Part shown: positions 6,665-58,525 of the stretch, in pieces
Position numbering within the stretch: the first letter of the stretch is position 1
Layout: each line of letters opens with the position of its first letter
Origin: Okamejei kenojei
Taxonomy: Eukaryota
Reading direction: 5' to 3'
NCBI GenBank assembly: GCA_035221665.1
Contig: CM069161.1
Span: 2,666,001-2,730,000 of the forward strand
Length of the DNA stretch: 64,000 bases
Notes under the pieces: model-generated
What the model was told of the DNA's origin: nothing
What the model saw: only the letters and a program-made list of their open reading frames with translations
The model's database searches: none
Position numbers and translations under genes: made by a program

Positions 6665-8176
6665 CCCAGCTACGCTTGCCTCTCTGTCGGGTACGTCGAA
6701 CAATCCTTGTTCTCGGCGTACCAGGACCCCATCCCCAACCTCTACCTCCGTTACATCGATGACTGCTTTAGTGTCACCTCTTGCACCCACACACAACTGA
6801 CTGACTTCATCCATTTCACCACCAACTTCCATCCGGCACTCAAATACACTTGGACCATTTCCGACATTTCCCTCCATTCTTTGACCTCACCATCTCTATT
6901 GCAGGTGATACACTCCTGACCGACATCCACTACAAACCAACTGACTCCCACAGCTACCTGGACTACTCTTCCTCCCACCCTGCTTCCTGTAGGGACTCCA
7001 TCCCTATTCCCAATTCCTCTTCTACGCCGCATCTGCTCCCAGGATGAGGTGTTCCACAAACCAGGTCATCGCAAATGGCCTCATTCTTCAGAAAACGGGG
7101 ATTCCCCTCCCCCACTATAGATGAGGCTCGCACCAGGGTCTCCTCCGTACCCCCAACACTGCCCTCTCTCCCTCCCCCATTCCCCCCCCACTCACAAACA
7201 GGGCAGAGTCCCCCTGGTCCTCATCTTTCACCCCACCAGCCGGCAAATACAACACATAGTCCTCCGCCAGTTTCGCCACCTCCAACTGACCCCTCCTCTC
7301 GCCACATCTTCCCATCTCCCCCTCTTTCTGCCTTCTGCAAAGACTACTCCCTCCGCAACTCCCTTGTCAATTCTTCCCTTCCCTCCCACTCTACCCCTTC
7401 CCCGGGCACTTTCCCTTGCAACTGCAAGAAATGCTACACTTGTCCCTTCACCTCCTTCCTCCACTCCTTTCAGGGACCCAAGCAGTCCTTCCAGGTCCGA
7501 CAGAGGTTCACCTGCACCTCCTCCAACCTCATCTACTGAATCCGCTGCTCCAGATGCCAGATAATCTATATCGGTGAGACCAAGCGGAGGCTTGGCGATC
7601 GTTTCGCCGAACACCTCCGCTCAGTCCGCAATAACCAAGCCGACCTCCCGGTGGCTCAGCACTTCAACTCCCCCTCCCATTCCGTATCCGACCTCTCGGT
7701 CCTGGGCCTCCTCCACGGCCAGAGTGAGCAACACCGCAAGTTGGAGGAACAGCACCTCATATTCTGCTTGGGGAGTCTGCATCTTTGGGCTTGAACATTG
7801 AATTTTCTCAATTCTGTTAACCCTTGCTGTCTCCTCCCCTTCCCACCTCTCCCTCAGCCCTCGGGCCCTGGCATTCCCTCTCTCTCTATCTCCCTCCCCC
7901 ACCCTAGTCGCACTAGCTTCTCATTTTCACACCACAAACAGCTTACAATGGCTTGTTCCCTTTATCATCGATACTTTTTTGCATATCTTTCATTCATTGT
8001 TCTTTATCTCTCCACATCACCGTCTATTTCCCTGATTACTGACCAGTCTGAAGAAGGGTTTCGACCCGAAACGTCGCCTATCTCCTTCGCTCTTTAGATG
8101 CTGCTGCACCCGCTGTGTTTCTCCAGCCTTTTGTGTAACCTCGATTCTCCAGCATCTGCAGTTCCTTCTTTAACAA
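6665..8176 (+). mobile_element. 5'-truncated Penelope-like retroelement (RT C-terminal part, GIY-YIG endonuclease, pLTR with hammerhead motif)
   Basis: Frameshifted peptides LYLRYIDDCF (RT active site), TDIHYKPTDSHSYLDYSSSHP, FTCTSSNLIY and IYIGETKRRLGDRFAEH (GIY-YIG). 11-bp TSD CATAATACAGC at 6654-6664 and 8177-8187. Confidence 0.92.
8044..8080 (+). ncRNA. Minimal hammerhead ribozyme motif in Penelope pLTR
   Basis: CTGAAGA-A-GGGT(TTCG)ACCC-GAAAC-GTC: CUGANGA core, stem II, GAAA and a palindromic ACGT mini stem III. Penelope-like elements are known to carry such motifs. Stem I is weak in this subfamily. Confidence 0.65.
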
Positions 8177-9144
8177 CATAATACAGCATCATTTTGATTG
8201 CACTACATCCCACCAAACACATCATTCTTCAAAGTGCCTCCCACAGTTGATGAATTGAAAATAAAGTAGCTCAAGATCACAGAATAAAATCTGTAGTCCC
8301 AGATGATACAGTCAATGCCCTTACACCATGAAATCACTAAATTTTATCCAAAGCAAATGTGAATTACTCCCTCACATCTAAATTACTTTATTGTGAAGTA
8401 ATACAAGACAGAAACACAGATATAAAAGTAAGAAAATCAAAATGTTTCAATTAAAGTGAAGAGATTCAATGTTCAATTGTTGTGTAATGCTATTGTGCTG
8501 TATTTAAGGACACTATAGTTGAGAAAATAGATCAATTACTTCCTCCTTTCAAGCACAAGTCACGAAGGAGAAACAATTTAACTCAGGTTATATTCTACTA
8601 GTCATTATTTCCAGCCGAAATTGGGAAATTGGCCTGGGAACTTCCACAAACAGTTTGCTTTTTCCACCAATATACTGTACCGTGTTGCATTAGTGTCTAT
8701 TTACAGAGACACTGTGTTGACATCAGTAGACCTGACTAGGCAGATTAAGAACTTAATCAACTCCCAAGGTCTGCAGAGTGTGCTTAAACTAATATGGTTT
8801 CTTTTTCCAGAACTTAGCTGTTGAAAATCTAATTCAATGGGTGCCTTGTGAATACGGCTGACAGCGCGCCTTGAACAACCCCTCTAATTGAGGCAATGGC
8901 AAGATCTATGGTATTGCCAGCAGCAGTTATATCTGTGTCATTTATCTCTGCACAATGAGCGATGTTAGGAGTCTTAATTGAGGACTCACTTCAGTACTGC
9001 TAGTAGATTCAGAATCATTCTGGAGATAATTACATTATACAAACTTCAACAATCCTGACATTTTCCAGTGTGATTCAATGCCTAGTTCCTTTCCCATTTC
9101 ACTAGTTTATAAGTGGGGTTCAAAGCCCAAATATTACTTCCCAA

Positions 9145-9480
9145 TGCAGACACAAGGAAGAACAGATGCTGGCATCTTGCGTACAACACAAAAGGCTGGA
9201 GTAATTTAACAGGTCAGGTTGCATCTCTGGAGGCAATGGACAAGCAATGTTTTGGGTTGGGACCACTCTTCAGACTCTTTATGGTGAAGCGGTTCGAGAG
9301 GTGGTGCCTGGCCTCAGCACAGTAGAGGTCAGCCCATCAGGTTCCCTTATCAAAGGCTTTGATAACAATAACAAGAATTGTTACTGAATCTAAAGAAGGG
9401 TCCCAACCCAAAACATTGCCTGTCCATTCCCTGCAGAAATGCTGCCTGACCCGCCGAGTTTCTGCAGCATTATCTGTTCT
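9145..9480. mobile_element. Decayed inverted pair of Penelope pLTR-derived units
   Basis: Minus-orientation unit (...CTCTTCAGACT at ~9275) and plus-orientation unit (TCTAAAGAAGGGTCCCAACCCAAAAC...) facing apart. Confidence 0.7.
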
Positions 9481-9739
9481 ACTACTTCCCAATGGCCCTG
9501 TACCGTCTGGAGAGAAATACTTCTGTTTATCACCTCTGCGTCATCCTAAGCTATGTCTCTGTTATAAAATTTCCCCTAAGAGAAATAAATCCATCCTGTT
9601 TACCTCAATGAGGCCACTCGTTATTTTATATACCTCAATTTTATATAAATCAAGACCTCTGTTTGGATATTGTCAAGCCAAATAATGTTTAGTAGATCAA
9701 AACACCATAAATAACACTCTTTTCATGGTGAAAGGTTAT

Positions 9740-9890
9740 GACAAAGAAGACGGCTTGATTGCTTTTAAAATGATGCCATGGGATCTTCTTTATTTACACC
9801 AAATAATAAATAACTTATTTGGAAAGTGATACCTTGTCTGTGCAGCATTCTGTCAGTCCTCCACAGGTTTATCAATGTCAGGTCACGTTT
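9740..9890 (-). mobile_element. Ancient SacSINE1/Deu-domain SINE-like relic
   Basis: TGCCATGGGATCTT...GAAAGTGATACCTTGTCTGTGCAGCATTCTGTCAGT resembles the recalled Deu-SINE consensus. Highly diverged. Confidence 0.45.
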
Positions 9891-10362
9891 ACTGCCATAT
9901 GCACAAGGATGGCAAGGTTCACATATAATGACAATCTCGCTTGGAGCAACATTAAAGCACACACAAACACGTAAGTTATACATACATTCTGAAAGACCAT
10001 TAATTTATGATTTTATCTGTTAACAGGCTGTTGTCTAGCTTAGAGTGTGAATTCATCTCAGACAGACATAAAATGCTGGAGTAAATTAGCAGGTCAGGCA
10101 GCATCTCTGGAGAAAAGGAATAGGTAACATTTCGGGTTGAGACCCTTCTCCAGACTGAGAGTCAGGGAGGGAAATTCGAGGTACGGACCAGATCAGAGCC
10201 GGCACTGATGACCAAAAAGTCCACAATGGTCCACAATGTGAAAGAGGGGATAACAAGGTGACATGAACCGTAAAACCAGCAGGACGACTAGGTCGGAGAG
10301 ACAAGGATTGTAAGGGTTACTTGAAATTTCAGAAATCAATATTCATACCGCTGGGTTATAAG

Positions 10363-10531
10363 CTTCTTCTTATCGAGTCCACACACAAGATTAGAAGTTG
10401 GTCAGCCAGAGCTGACGCACCTCTCAGCATCTGCGCACAATGGCGTCTGTCTTGCGCTTGTGTTTCTTGCGCGTTGTGCTGGAAGATTGGTGAAAAGAGG
10501 GCCGCGACGTGAACGCTCTTTCCTCGACCCC
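10363..10531 (-). mobile_element. 169-bp non-autonomous retroposon (Vingi/Ingi/RTE-type) with 5' HDV-like ribozyme and (GAA)n tail
   Basis: Splits the Penelope sequence CTGGGTTGTAAG|CTGCCC. Imperfect TSD GGTTATAAG (10354-10362) / GGTTGTAGG (10532-10540). The minus strand starts GGGGTCGAGGAAAGAGCG and ends CTCGATAAGAAGAAG. Confidence 0.75.
10481..10531 (-). ncRNA. Compact HDV-like (CPEB3-type) self-cleaving ribozyme motif lacking P4
   Basis: GGGGUC-GAGGAAAGA-GCG-UUCACGU-CGC-GGCCCU-CUUUUCA-CCAA-UCUUCC. P1 is GGGGUC/GGCCCU with a G1.U wobble, P3 is GCG/CGC, L3 is UUCACGU, J4/2 contains a C, and P2 is GGAAAGA/UCUUCC with one bulge. Confidence 0.7.
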
Positions 10532-11439
10532 GGTTGTAGGCTGCCCTAGCGAAATATGAGGTGCTGTTCTTCCAATTAGCATGTGGCCTCACTCTGACGG
10601 TGGGGAAGGCCATACCAGCTGATTTCTTCACTTATCGCAAGTGCTATTTCACAACAGCCTTGGATTGCTCACAAAAAGTCTGGTGCCGTCTCAGCCCTTT
10701 TCAGTGAAATTCACAGCTCACCTTAAATCTGTCTGAAGGAAAATTCGTTTTCTGGGCTGCTGTCACATATATTCACCTTCAGTTGCCAGCGTCAACATTG
10801 CACTGTTCCATGAGGCAATTAAAAATGCTTTCCATCTGATGTAAGTCCTGAGGGTATCAAATCCGCAGTTGGCGCAATAATTTGTTCATTACCATGCCAC
10901 GTTCTGTAACACCTAGATTAGGAAGTTCTAGCAGTAAAATGAAATAAAATACAGGAAATTATTTGACAAATGTTTCTGGCCATTAAAACAAACTCCAGTT
11001 GAGTTATATGGTGTTGCTATTTTGCCTGACATTTAGTTTTTATGTGGATTTAATGCCATTTAGAAATGGTACTCCAGTAATTGGTTGGCATTTAGTCCTA
11101 TTCACAAATTTCATCACGGGCCTCCTGTCAAATGGAGACAAAACATTGATTGTCAACATTGATTGAATGCAGGATTGGTCTTGGATATTGCATTTAAGGG
11201 GAGATATGGCCTTGGAGGTGGTACCACATAATTTTACCGCAATTGGGGGTTAACATGTGAGAGCTGGTTATGTAACCTCCAGGGCATTACCTTGGATTTT
11301 GAAGATTAGCGGTTTATCAGACCAAAGAAAATATTACAGTGATTCAATGGTGTAGATGCAAAAAAACACTACTTCATCTGTTGAGAGAATAAGAATGAGA
11401 GGATTTAATTTTAGAAACAGAACTAGGACATTAGGGAGA

Positions 11440-11562
11440 CCCTGGAAAACTCTGTCACAGAGAGAATGTGCAAATTTCACACAGACAGCAGCCAAGGTCA
11501 GGATAAAACAAGGGATTCTGGCACCTTGAGGCAATAACTCTACCAGCTGCACCACTGGGCCA
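11440..11562 (-). mobile_element. tRNA SINE 5' fragment
   Basis: Reverse complement of the SINE head: GTGGTGCAGCTGGTAGAGTT...CCTGACCTTGGCTGCTGTCTGTGTG. Confidence 0.7.
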
Positions 11563-11789
11563 CCTACACTTGTATACTGGAAAACAATAGGAGCTTGCAA
11601 GACCGAAATCCTGTTTCTATATCCCTCGATTCCTGGCCTCTGTTGGGCAGTGCTCTCGGGTTTTTTGCACAACTGGAATTTAAAACCTAATTGTTAAACG
11701 TTTTCAGGAACTCCGGGTTCGCACAGTGTACTACCAACATTTACTAAAGTTCTCGAGGTTACAATGCACTGACATGCATCAACCACTTC

Positions 11790-12330
11790 CTCGGGATGCT
11801 ACAGTTTACATTTCCTTCTGAATCTACTCTCCTTATGATGGCAACATTTTTTGTAATGACAAAATATGCAAACACTTGCTCTTTTATCCCCCTTCTCATT
11901 GTCCAGAAGATAGGACCCTTTTTTGTGACAAAATGATTTTCTTACATTTATGTCGATGTAATGTACTACATCTGTTGCTCATGATGTGGTCTCCTCTTCA
12001 GTGGGGAATCTAAAGGTAGACAATGTAATTGCTTCACAGAACATTCCCATTCAATCTTGAACCACATATCACTTCAATTCTCTGTATCATTTGCACTTCA
12101 GCCTCCTGCACTATGCTCAACATAAGCTTTCACCTCCCCCTTTGACCTTGGTTATTAGGGACTTCCAGGCTCAATTGTTAATCAGCACTGCAATATTCTT
12201 ATTCCAGATTTCAATGTTTTATGTAAGTTCAGCCACATGCTCTACATTCTCACATTCTCCAGGCTTTTGCTATCTTGCATTATCACCTTTGTTTAACATT
12301 TTTTATTTTCTCTCATCATTCATTCTATCT
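11790..12330 (+). mobile_element. Highly decayed Penelope-like GIY-YIG region
   Basis: TACTACATCTGTTGCTCATGATGTGGTCTCCTCTTCAGTGGGGAATCTAAAGGTAGA resembles the YCIRCSRCGLLYIGETKRR coding block. Confidence 0.55.
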
Positions 12331-12689
12331 CTGATCTCCTTTCCTCCCTTTTATCATTTCTCAGCATCTTAATGAAGAAAAATGGCCTCTGTCCAATATT
12401 AAATTGAATGTTTAGACAATTGCTGATGGACTTGGCCTAATGTCTGGGGCTGAAAGCTGGACTTGTTACATGGGTTATGAATTTCCTCAGGTCATCTGAA
12501 GCTGCTTTACCAGAAATTAATTATTACAATTATTCATGAATGTGGCTGAAGGAGCTGCCAAATAATGGTAGCTCAAAAAGGAAATTTACCATTATTTATT
12601 CTGGGAGCTAATGAGGTTAGCTGCGCTCAAATCATTATGTCACCGAAAAAATCGTGTATGTGGGACAGGCCCTTGTGAGATAATGGTGA

Positions 12690-13070
12690 GAGGCTGAGGT
12701 GACCATAGAAGATTAAGAGGCAAAGAAAGGAGAGAGCGTAGGAGTATTTTCCTCATGGGAGGAATATCAAAAATATGAGCACATAGGTTTACCGTGAGAG
12801 GATAGAGTTTTAAAGGGGATCAGAGGGATAATTATTTTACAATGAGAGTGACTGATATTTGGAATGCATTGCCTGAGGAGTTGGTACACTTGTATATAAT
12901 CACTATCTTTATGAGATATTTAGACATACATTTCGATAGACAAGTAATGGAAGGCTATAGTCCCAATGTGGGCAAGTAGAATCAGTATAGCATTGCTGGG
13001 CAAAAAGGATGTCATGGATTTGGTGAGATGAAGGGTCCGTTTCTGTGCAGTACAACCATAAGACTATGAA
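12690..13070 (+). mobile_element. CR1 LINE 3' fragment (decayed)
   Basis: Resembles the CR1 ORF2 C-terminus (GAGAGGCTGAGGTGACC...TTTTACAATGAGAGTG...TGGAATGCATTGCCTGAGGAG) and 3' UTR. Confidence 0.7.
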
Positions 13071-56843: not shown

Positions 56844-57114
56844 AGCTATAGGATAATATTGAAGGTGGATGATCACAGAGACAGTGGGTTTGTGGTTTAG
56901 TCCAGGGTCAGTGGCAAGCTGTTTGTGAGGTTCTACTACTACTGCTATCATATTTTTCTAAGGATGTCTTAATGTATTTTTTAGTCTCAAGTTCTGTGCA
57001 AGGAGTCTTATGAAAATGTTTGCTTTGAAGACCCTACATTTTACCCACAAACTTGTAATTTAATCCAGTGGGCCGCGATATCGCAATGCAAAAAACAAAC
57101 TGCTGGAAGAACTT

Positions 57115-57521
57115 TCAGGGACCCAAGCAGTCCTTCCAGGTCCGACAGAGGTTCACCTGCACCTCCTCCAACCTCATCTACTGCATCCGCTGCTCCAGAT
57201 GCCAGATGATCTATATCGGTGAGACCAAGCGGAGGCTTGGCGATCGCTTTGCCGAACACCTCCGCTCGGTCCGCAATAACCAACCCGACCTCCCGGTGGC
57301 TCAGCACTTCAACTCTCCCTCCCATTCCGCATCCGACCTCTCGGTCCTGGGCCTCCTCCACGGCCAGAGTGAGCAACACCGCAAGCTGGAGGAACAGCAC
57401 CTCATATTCTGCTTGGGGAGTCTGCATCCTTTGGGCTTGAACATTGAATTTTCTCAATTCTGTTAACCCTTGCTGTCTCCTCCCCTTCCCACCTCTCCCT
57501 CAGCCCTCAGGCCCTGGCATT

Positions 57522-57552
<31 letters not shown>

Positions 57553-57813
57553 ATCTCCCTCCCCCACCCCAGTCGCACCAGCTTCTCATTTTCACACCAC
57601 AAACAGCTTACAATGGCTTGTTCCCTTTATCATCGATACTTTTTTGCATATCTTTCATTCATTGTTCCTTATCTCTCCACATCACCGTCTATATCTCTCG
57701 TTTCCCTGATCCCTGACCAGTCTGAAGAAGGGTCTCGACCCGAAACGTCGCCTATCTCCTTCACTCCTTAGATGCTGCTGCACCCGCTGAGTTTCTCCAG
57801 CTTTTTGTGTACC
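57115..57813 (+). mobile_element. Young 5'-truncated Penelope element (open GIY-YIG domain plus pLTR hammerhead)
   Basis: ORF with FTCTSSNLIYCIRCSRCQMIYIGETKRRLGDRFAEHLRSV...RKLEEQHLIFCLGSLHPLGLN. 15-bp TSD CTGCTGGAAGAACTT at 57100-57114 and 57814-57828. Near-identical to 7470-8150. Confidence 0.93.
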
Positions 57814-58110
57814 CTGCTGGAAGAACTTAGTGAGTCGGATTTCGGGTCATGACCCTGCATCTGGACAAAGTCCTCAGTCCTGATGCACAGTTATAACCTG
57901 AAATGTTGACTGCCTTCTCAGATGCTGCTTAACCTGCTGAGCTCCTCCAGCAGTTCATTTTTGCTCCAGATTCCAGCATCTGCAGCCTCTTATGTCTCTA
58001 TTGTAAACAATTACTTGGATCCAGCACTCTATTTGCTTCTGACTATCCACAAAACCAATTGTTTGTCAAGTCTTTGATCAGAATGGCCTGATCTCAATCT
58101 CATAAGGTAC

Positions 58111-58525
58111 CTGTGTTGGAAGAAACTGCAGATGCTGGTTTAAACCGATGATAGACACAAATAACTGGAGTAGCTCAGCGGGGCAGACAGCATCTCTGGA
58201 GAGAACGAATGGGTGACGTTTCGGGTCGAGACCCTTCTTCAGACTAATCAGGGGAAAGGGAAATGAGAGATATAGACGATGATGTAGAGAGATAAAAAAT
58301 AATGAATGAAAGACATGCAAAAGGTTAACGATGATAAAGGAAACAGGCCATTGCTAGCTGTTTGTTGGGTGAAAACGAGAAGCTGGTGCGACTTGGGTGG
58401 GGGTGGGATGGAGAGAGAGGGAATGCTGAGGTTACTTGAAGTTAGAGAAATTAATATTCATACCACTGGGCTGTAAGCTGCCCAAGCGAAATATGAGATG
58501 CTGCTCCTCCAATTTACGTTTAAGA
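58111..58525 (-). mobile_element. Penelope 3' fragment with pLTR
   Basis: Reverse complement of the pLTR and hammerhead and of the GIY-YIG C-terminus. Confidence 0.88.

Follow-up and report, generated by a model that had tools for sequence, protein, structure and literature searches.

Bipartite LINE derivatives, among them SIDEs, NARTc and RIME, are an already known kind of retroposon, and the element described here is a new example of it. Like the internal-deletion derivatives of Vingi-1_EE, RIME (Ingi), NARTc (L1Tc), Bov-A and the RTESINEs, it consists of LINE ends alone, with no ORF and no small-RNA head (PMC5786205). The accessible text of that paper (Kojima 2018) counts Vingi as one of four clades said to produce bipartite non-autonomous LINEs, and names six clades with 5' ribozymes—R1, R2, R4, RTE, Ingi, together with LOA—with Vingi absent from the list and CPEB3 unmentioned.

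As in the R2 SIDEs of Drosophila (PMC3414825) and in NARTc with its L1TcRz (PMC3185411), for which release from a co-transcript has been proposed, the element joins an HDV-like ribozyme to a LINE 3' end. Unlike SIDEs, which are site-specific for rDNA, and NARTc, which is trypanosomatid, it is dispersed in an animal genome, and its predicted ribozyme is 52 nt long and lacks P4. The absence of P4 and a catalytic C standing first in J4/2 are shared with the theta/minimal HDV-like ribozymes, nearly 99% of which, by the available account, are in phages, with none in the eukaryotic genomes searched there (PMC10879173); unlike the phage forms, the one described here heads a retroposon, has a P1 of 6 bp and is evidently derived from P4-bearing Vingi heads. 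With the mammalian CPEB3 ribozyme (RF00622; PMC8233481) it has in common a P3-L3-P3 segment identical over 13 nt, a single C-G pair as P1.1 and a G1-U wobble.

The same ribozyme-like head is found in the Vingi 5' part of Vingi-2_Gav of the gharial and of SINE2-1_AMi of the alligator, the latter also sharing the GGACACGA-type tail (PMC5786205 supplement). Unlike the element, both keep P4, and SINE2-1_AMi is additionally headed by a tRNA; the accessible parts of PMC5786205 do not name the shared head a ribozyme. As a separate observation, the body of SINE2-1_AMi reads as a damaged CPEB3-like ribozyme behind a tRNA, and its 3' end, given there as 'unknown', resembles a Vingi tail. Our literature search, conducted apart from earlier closed papers, Repbase, Dfam and patents, where prior notice is possible, found in the text accessible to it no paper linking Vingi with an HDV-like ribozyme and no statement of a link between Vingi and the CPEB3 ribozyme.

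The insert and its repeat family

We analyzed a stretch of 64,000 nt from Okamejei kenojei (hereafter the window), in which an earlier note had claimed that a discrete insert splits an otherwise continuous Penelope sequence. This is borne out: positions 10363-10531 hold, on the minus strand, one copy of a non-autonomous bipartite Vingi derivative of ~165-175 bp, delimited by genome matches and its target-site duplication (TSD), and an uninterrupted Penelope relative at window 58410-58514 matches both flanks. Read from 10531 to 10363, the insert, whose coordinates are exact, starts with GGGGTC and ends in an (AAG)n tail, the simple-repeat tail that had been written as (GAA)n. Because the two flank matches to the uninterrupted relative overlap by 11 bp (58469-58479), we take the TSD to be 11 bp long, with copies that differ by two C/T mismatches, the 5' copy lying at 10532-10542 and the 3' copy, which carries the two mismatches and has two bases in common with the tail, at 10354-10364 (both minus strand). 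The imperfection of the duplication had thus been seen, and the 9 bp given for it earlier are part of these 11. A small hairpin near the 3' end, GTCAGC-TCTG-GCTGAC, is present as described at 10416-10401 (minus strand), with a 6-bp stem in the window copy and a 7-bp stem in the family (columns 109-128), where it overlaps the last codons of the LINE ORF; we infer for it a role in RT recognition.

The insert belongs to a large family. All 40 scored genome matches (of 1,474 candidates) are near full length, with identities of 87-100%, and the exact 18-nt tail occurs 1,509 times, compared with 0 for its reversed control, a count that is a lower bound for tail-bearing copies and includes some LINE tails. 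The tail-bearing family is dispersed in a 2.76-Gb genome. We fetched 113 distinct copies, 92 of them full length, and used 101 headed copies for counts at the 5' end. TSD scores reached at least 7 in 55 of the 92 full-length copies vs. 0 of 456 shuffled flank pairs, with TSD lengths of 7-14 bp and a mode of 11-12; many dispersed copies with such duplications are what independent retrotransposition leaves. The window copy carries 8.6% substitutions relative to the majority of the 92 copies, compared with a mean of 5.0% among copies most of which were picked by similarity.

The 5' ends are sharp. Among the first 30 tail matches on contig 1, picked without regard to the head, 23 come to within 5 nt of G1, the other 7 being shortened. 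Loose contig ends from a pair of public DNA runs of two organisms, one run possibly being the source sample, pile up at the G1 boundary (327 and 357 contigs, vs. 77 and 84 one base before); among public sequencing runs, no RNA run is listed as carrying the element, and pieces of it occur in two runs presumed to be RNA, which does not bear on expression. These tabulations of TSD length and 5'-end precision, which the earlier note had proposed, favor its reading: the sequence is multi-copy, its 5' ends are sharp at G1, and it is not a fragment of an unrelated repeat. We also observed that, of 101 copies, 56 have T before G1 and 8 have G, and that TSDs often begin with A, a bias that amounts to a mild target preference, with the G count blurred by the G run.

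Both ends of the element come from one LINE family

Searching for the partner among copies picked by head, by tail or by the whole element did not reveal it, as the mini-element swamped the lists; it came to light when the results of a protein search begun with a sister copy were intersected with the list of tail matches. Two 5'-truncated LINEs, L191 and L197 (L numbers denote fetched loci), match the element over their last 70 nt at 90% (E 1e-20) and 87%, respectively, and the tail of the element corresponds to the last codons, stop and 3' UTR of the L191-type ORF. In the window copy, these last ~70 nt of the partner LINE occupy 10363-10431 (minus strand) and comprise the final ORF codons, the stop at 10393-10391, a short 3' UTR and the (AAG)n tail. 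Most fetched copies of the partner family, L227 included, are 80-90% identical to the element over these 70 nt. Matches to the family numbered 47, out of 110 candidates with 40 scored; the element outnumbers its partner more than tenfold (1,509 exact tails vs. 110 candidates).

The 5' part is tied to the same LINE by L227 (G000:C2:137046896-137050334), which begins with the P4-less head of the element, continues with sequence from the APE end and the RT and closes with the same tail, all of it framed by an imperfect TSD. Its body aligns by tblastn to residues 213-948 of P0003; the copy is itself internally deleted, with a fragment of another repeat at the seam. Positions 1-97 of the family majority align to L227:45-129 with a 12-nt slip deletion, and the AC-rich leader of the window copy (10432-10480, minus strand), which follows the head and also derives from the 5' end of the partner, stops at the deletion junction, where a microhomology ATG.A stands on both sides of the deletion. 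Since L227 shares both head and tail, we read the element as positions 1-~95 of the LINE 5' end followed by its last ~70 nt, the 5' assignment resting on this one linking copy; two further searches for the 5' part of the family returned 9 and 6 matches, all headless. The autonomous partner sharing both termini that the earlier note had wished to see sought is thereby represented, and its proposal of an internally deleted Vingi/Ingi/RTE derivative is supported, with a Vingi-type partner in the same genome.

The clade of the partner is read in part from sister copies. One of these, L151, spans ~3.1 kb: a CPEB3-like head is followed by an APE-RT frame and a tail of the type GGAC...(AAG)n, a TSD flanks the element, and a single 963-aa homologue tiles it end to end. 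The 120 listed homologues of another sister family, that of L203, carry PF00078, PF14529 and PF03372 alone, with no RNase H. A compact single ORF with APE and RT and no RNase H is how the available text of PMC13708176 describes the Vingi clade; this architecture is present in the sister copies, the partner itself being decayed and tiled by tblastn alone. Pfam returned nothing in three short Vingi frames and RVT_1 alone in a frame of 776 aa, and a PDB search with a Vingi-type frame gave distant RTs alone. By eye, the LINE heads match the printed 5' end of Vingi-2_Gav, and the partner shows 41-61% identity in pieces to P0040, an Anolis protein that is not called Vingi by its source. Judged from the APE-RT frame of the sister family and the head match to Vingi-2_Gav, the partner LINE is Vingi-type.

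Other Vingi families were encountered along the way. The 776-aa frame just mentioned (L203:2223-4553; G000:C3, ~130.59 Mb) is 87% identical to the bony-fish protein P0001 and 82% to another, P0002, with the next match at 52%, an identity gap that we regard as a lead for possible horizontal transfer. A younger-looking family with near-identical 3' ends (L174, L178, L183-L185, L190, L201 and L205) bears a GCCAG-ATA-CTGGC hairpin over its last codons, and no CPEB3-like head was seen in its fetched stretches. Upstream of a LINE piece, L256 contains retroviral-type pol sequence that several stops and frameshifts have broken up.

The predicted ribozyme head and its likeness to CPEB3

The family majority folds as a 52-nt HDV-like nested double pseudoknot with P1 at 1-6/29-34, P2 at 9-15/46-52 (seven perfect pairs), P3 at 16-18/26-28 (three pairs), L3 at 19-25, a single P1.1 pair C21-G35 and a G1-U wobble, five unpaired bases taking the place of P4. 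The predicted catalytic C42, assigned by analogy with C57 of CPEB3, opens J4/2 and is retained by 84 of the 92 copies, among them that of the window; G35 is retained by 88 of 92. In the window, the predicted minimal HDV-like ribozyme spans 10481-10531 (minus strand), as placed by the Rfam CPEB3 model, column counts over the 92 copies and pair counts. This copy departs from the fold of the majority: it alone among the 92 has C at position 35 (window 10497), and it lacks one T of the P2 3' strand, which leaves P2 bulged and P1.1 broken. With G35 of P1.1 and one P2 base lost, its ribozyme is probably dead; the equivalent single P1.1 pair of CPEB3 is evident in the mutagenesis data reported in PMC9901934, as far as its text is available.

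Scored against the Rfam CPEB3 model, the window head reaches 24 bits (E 0.0042) and that of another copy, L004, 27.6 bits, below the gathering cut-off of 35 bits. Unlike CPEB3, the element has no P4 and has other P1 and P2 sequences, and we attribute the weak scores to a model that is without the pseudoknot helix and expects P4. Across the genome the same model exceeds its cut-off at 30 places, at up to 66.8 bits, compared with 0 in 14 prokaryotic control genomes; six of the places are other copies of the element (36-40 bits) and 24 are longer, LINE-type heads with P4 (35-67 bits). Minimum-free-energy folding, by a program blind to pseudoknots, gave the region no advantage over its shuffles (z -0.01).

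In an alignment of 22 distinct heads from four families, 90.9% of cells are paired, a fraction that 0 of 500 shuffles reached (slid controls, 40-51%), and 8 of 23 pairs change on both sides, including four of the seven in P2; these counts come from four related families with few independent events and from alignment boundaries chosen by hand. P1.1 scored just 15 of 22, because the P1 rows of the short family sit one column off. Between the element and its sister families, three to four of the seven P2 pairs differ and every change is compensated, which, together with the kept core and predicted catalytic C, is consistent with the fold having been under selection in the source lineage. After insertion, no selection on the ribozyme is seen, since head, middle and tail decay alike: non-CpG mismatches amount to 3.9% in the ribozyme vs. 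4.8% and 4.0% in the rest of the element. We also note at least three further Vingi families (L121-L141, L146, L148 and L150) with P4-bearing heads over the CPEB3 cut-off and compensated differences in P1, P2 and P4.

The main doubt about ribozyme activity concerns P1, which lacks one pair in the main subfamily. It has 6 bp there: 60 of the 101 headed copies show four G and three C, and 5 of 101 show a longer 3' strand, so that the 7-bp P1 of HDV and CPEB3 is absent from this subfamily; in the literature we found no tested ribozyme that combines a 6-bp P1 with the lack of P4. A minor subfamily (L142-L145 and L147; 5 of 101) has a 7-nt P1 3' strand and four G at the 5' end, and is perhaps the step before P1 was shortened.

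The LINE heads of the sister families are 81-85% identical to the CPEB3 ribozyme over 67 nt. Three of them—L121, L122 and L123—match the Rfam CPEB3 consensus by eye at 54, 57 and 56 of 67 positions, with freely variable helices included; Vingi-2_Gav matches at 46 of 48 positions outside P4, and the P4 stem of SINE2-1_AMi at all 14 bases (both by eye). The CPEB3 ribozyme is single-copy and intronic and, in the text available, stated to be absent outside mammals (PMC8233481), and the human genome retains traces of ancient Vingi activity, X12_LINE, according to the accessible part of PMC5753468. This pattern suggests that the ribozyme of mammalian CPEB3 arose by domestication of a Vingi 5' end, a descent made likely by shared stems that active-site convergence leaves unexplained. 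That the likeness instead reflects convergence on a constrained fold seems to us doubtful: the motif is just 67 nt long, and convergence of active-site sequence is documented for R2 ribozymes in the sources at hand, but the likeness covers helices of free sequence in all of L121-L123, Vingi-2_Gav and SINE2-1_AMi, and the model's 30 places in this genome have no counterpart in any of the 14 controls.

Our analysis also revealed that most of the P4-bearing heads are inverted. For 14 of the 24 LINE-type heads, a Vingi body on the opposite strand begins no more than 100 nt from the 5' end of the head; a fifteenth case is weak, four are direct and five show neither arrangement. In the inverted cases (~1500-1600 of each of L123, L125, L127, L128, L129, L131, L133, L134, L135, L137, L138, L139, L148 and L150) G1 adjoins a 5'-truncated Vingi body of the other strand, and TSDs frame the whole inverted unit in four of eight tested (L125, L133, L134 and L139). 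By their layout these inversions look like the products of twin priming, which would have begun 15-45 nt past the ribozyme with the loss of most of the ORF; no report of twin priming with Vingi was found in the literature. As a further observation, L136:1511-1605 consists of a head followed almost directly by a Vingi-type tail, ~95 nt in all, and is possibly a still smaller two-ended element. Matches of Rfam miRNA families in the fetched loci were below cut-off and lay on inverted repeat pairs, and we discounted them.

Taken together, we think it likely that the CPEB3 ribozyme is a domesticated Vingi 5' end, that the vertebrate Vingi ribozyme family spans forms from the full CPEB3-like one to the 52-nt form with a 6-bp P1 and no P4, and that the 5' module is held at the insertion site during reverse transcription. 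Such holding would explain both the 14 inverted heads and the repeated rise of two-ended mini-elements. If so, the 52-nt form without P4 would be small enough to power a promoter-less retroposon, and Vingi heads would be an outgroup and probable source for the CPEB3 ribozyme, a conserved RNA of a mammalian brain gene, an origin that trees, synteny and cleavage assays could test. The predicted head would also rank among the smallest natural HDV-like ribozymes, in a form so far reported mainly from phages. Gene writing employs Vingi-1 together with templates bearing its 5' and 3' UTRs (PMC13708176, in the part available), so that a 5' ribozyme, a natural minimal template of 165 nt and a tendency to 5' inversion would bear on template design.

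Mobilization, alternatives and the Penelope setting

The sequences show a two-part origin, a head and tail in common with the LINE, TSDs, sharp 5' ends, and compensatory changes between families in the ribozyme helices. With considerable confidence we explain the element as a two-ended Vingi derivative in which a predicted minimal HDV-like ribozyme would cut a read-through transcript exactly at G1 and which the LINE protein likely inserts by way of the tail. A source copy without a promoter of its own would be transcribed by read-through; the head would cut just before G1 and release the element RNA, by analogy with SIDEs and NARTc; the LINE protein would bind the 3' ~70 nt with the 7-bp hairpin, a mobilization in trans that the shared ends point to; and target-primed reverse transcription would insert the RNA, leaving TSDs of 9-14 bp. 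The window copy landed in a Penelope remnant and has since lost P1.1 and one P2 base. Elsewhere, HDV-like ribozymes without P4 are active in vitro (PMC10879173, accessible text), and SIDEs (PMC3414825) and NARTc (PMC3185411) are described, in the portions available, as using an HDV-like ribozyme and a LINE 3' end in this way.

An alternative with the same origin would trace the sharp 5' end to an RNA polymerase II promoter that lies internally, within the first ~60 bases, the shortened ribozyme being a relic or no more than a protective fold. Such a promoter would likewise yield sharp 5' ends; Pr77 of L1Tc/NARTc is both promoter and ribozyme in the accessible accounts (PMC3185411, PMC3383444), and, compared with the sister families, P4 and one pair of P1 are gone from the head. 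We nevertheless judge this alternative improbable as a replacement for cleavage, given that the P2 changes are all compensated and the core and predicted catalytic C are kept; the two roles are compatible and could coexist.

A functional role for the nesting fares far worse. The host is the decayed 3' end of a Penelope-like ORF, the C-terminal motif after the GIY-YIG domain, with in-frame stops (10317-10611, minus strand, split by the insert), recognized by translation and by matches to 58410-58514 and 7705-7781. In L157, a frame of 158 aa closes with this C-terminal motif as well, and its weak Pfam GIY-YIG match (E 0.00097) is below cut-off. The pLTR of the host follows, with a minimal-hammerhead motif (10126-10153, minus strand) of the type described in PMC4209133, so that the order of a GIY-YIG-type ORF end and a hammerhead-bearing pLTR is present in the host, with the Pfam match weak and on a sister copy. 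By motif comparison its core, CUGGAGA, is broken, just as had been noted from sequence, at least 12 other copies in the window reading CUGAAGA; the same-strand position ~200-400 nt downstream also holds, at 210 nt from the 3' end of the element and ~380 nt from its 5' end.

From this strand and spacing one could imagine that the HDV-like head and the hammerhead cut a single transcript into unit-length or circular RNA, or that the element targets Penelope, and we rate either as very improbable. Of 91 other insertion sites, a single one touches the Penelope-type repeat in question, which makes up 5.5% of flank bases and is abundant, its pLTR part standing in 13-19 copies in the window; we rejected targeting and a two-ribozyme circle. 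Both motifs are broken at this locus, and single minimal hammerheads of PLEs are without cleavage in vitro in the available text of PMC4209133. The nesting is best read as chance, most likely an insertion, without preference, into an already common Penelope remnant: the observation is real and its Penelope setting incidental.

That the element is an ordinary Pol III SINE with an unrecognized small-RNA head, or a chance fragment, is scarcely credible, its SINE-like size, TSD and simple-repeat tail notwithstanding, as two LINE ends account for its whole length and searches for a tRNA-, 5S- or 7SL-type head with Pol III boxes found none. ARAGORN placed no tRNA over the element in any of eight loci, its sole call, in L007, lying ~800 bases off, in keeping with the tRNA-less head described earlier, and Rfam gave no match at E ≤ 1 in window 8000-13000 besides CPEB3. 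Scanned with consensus A-box and B-box motifs, the element has no A box within 1 mismatch and two B-box-like 9-mers at 1 mismatch each without an A-box partner; the earlier statement that Pol III boxes are lacking therefore stands for the A box and not strictly for the B box.

The window is rich in other repeats. At 7467-8175, 57112-57849 and 57542-58422 lie Penelope-type copies that are young, agreeing at 97% over 300 bp, as well as inverted pairs of pLTRs; at least 12 minimal-hammerhead motifs of the form CUGAAGA...GAAA occur in all, and a tandem array with a unit of 31-32 bp in ~16 copies occupies 623-1178.
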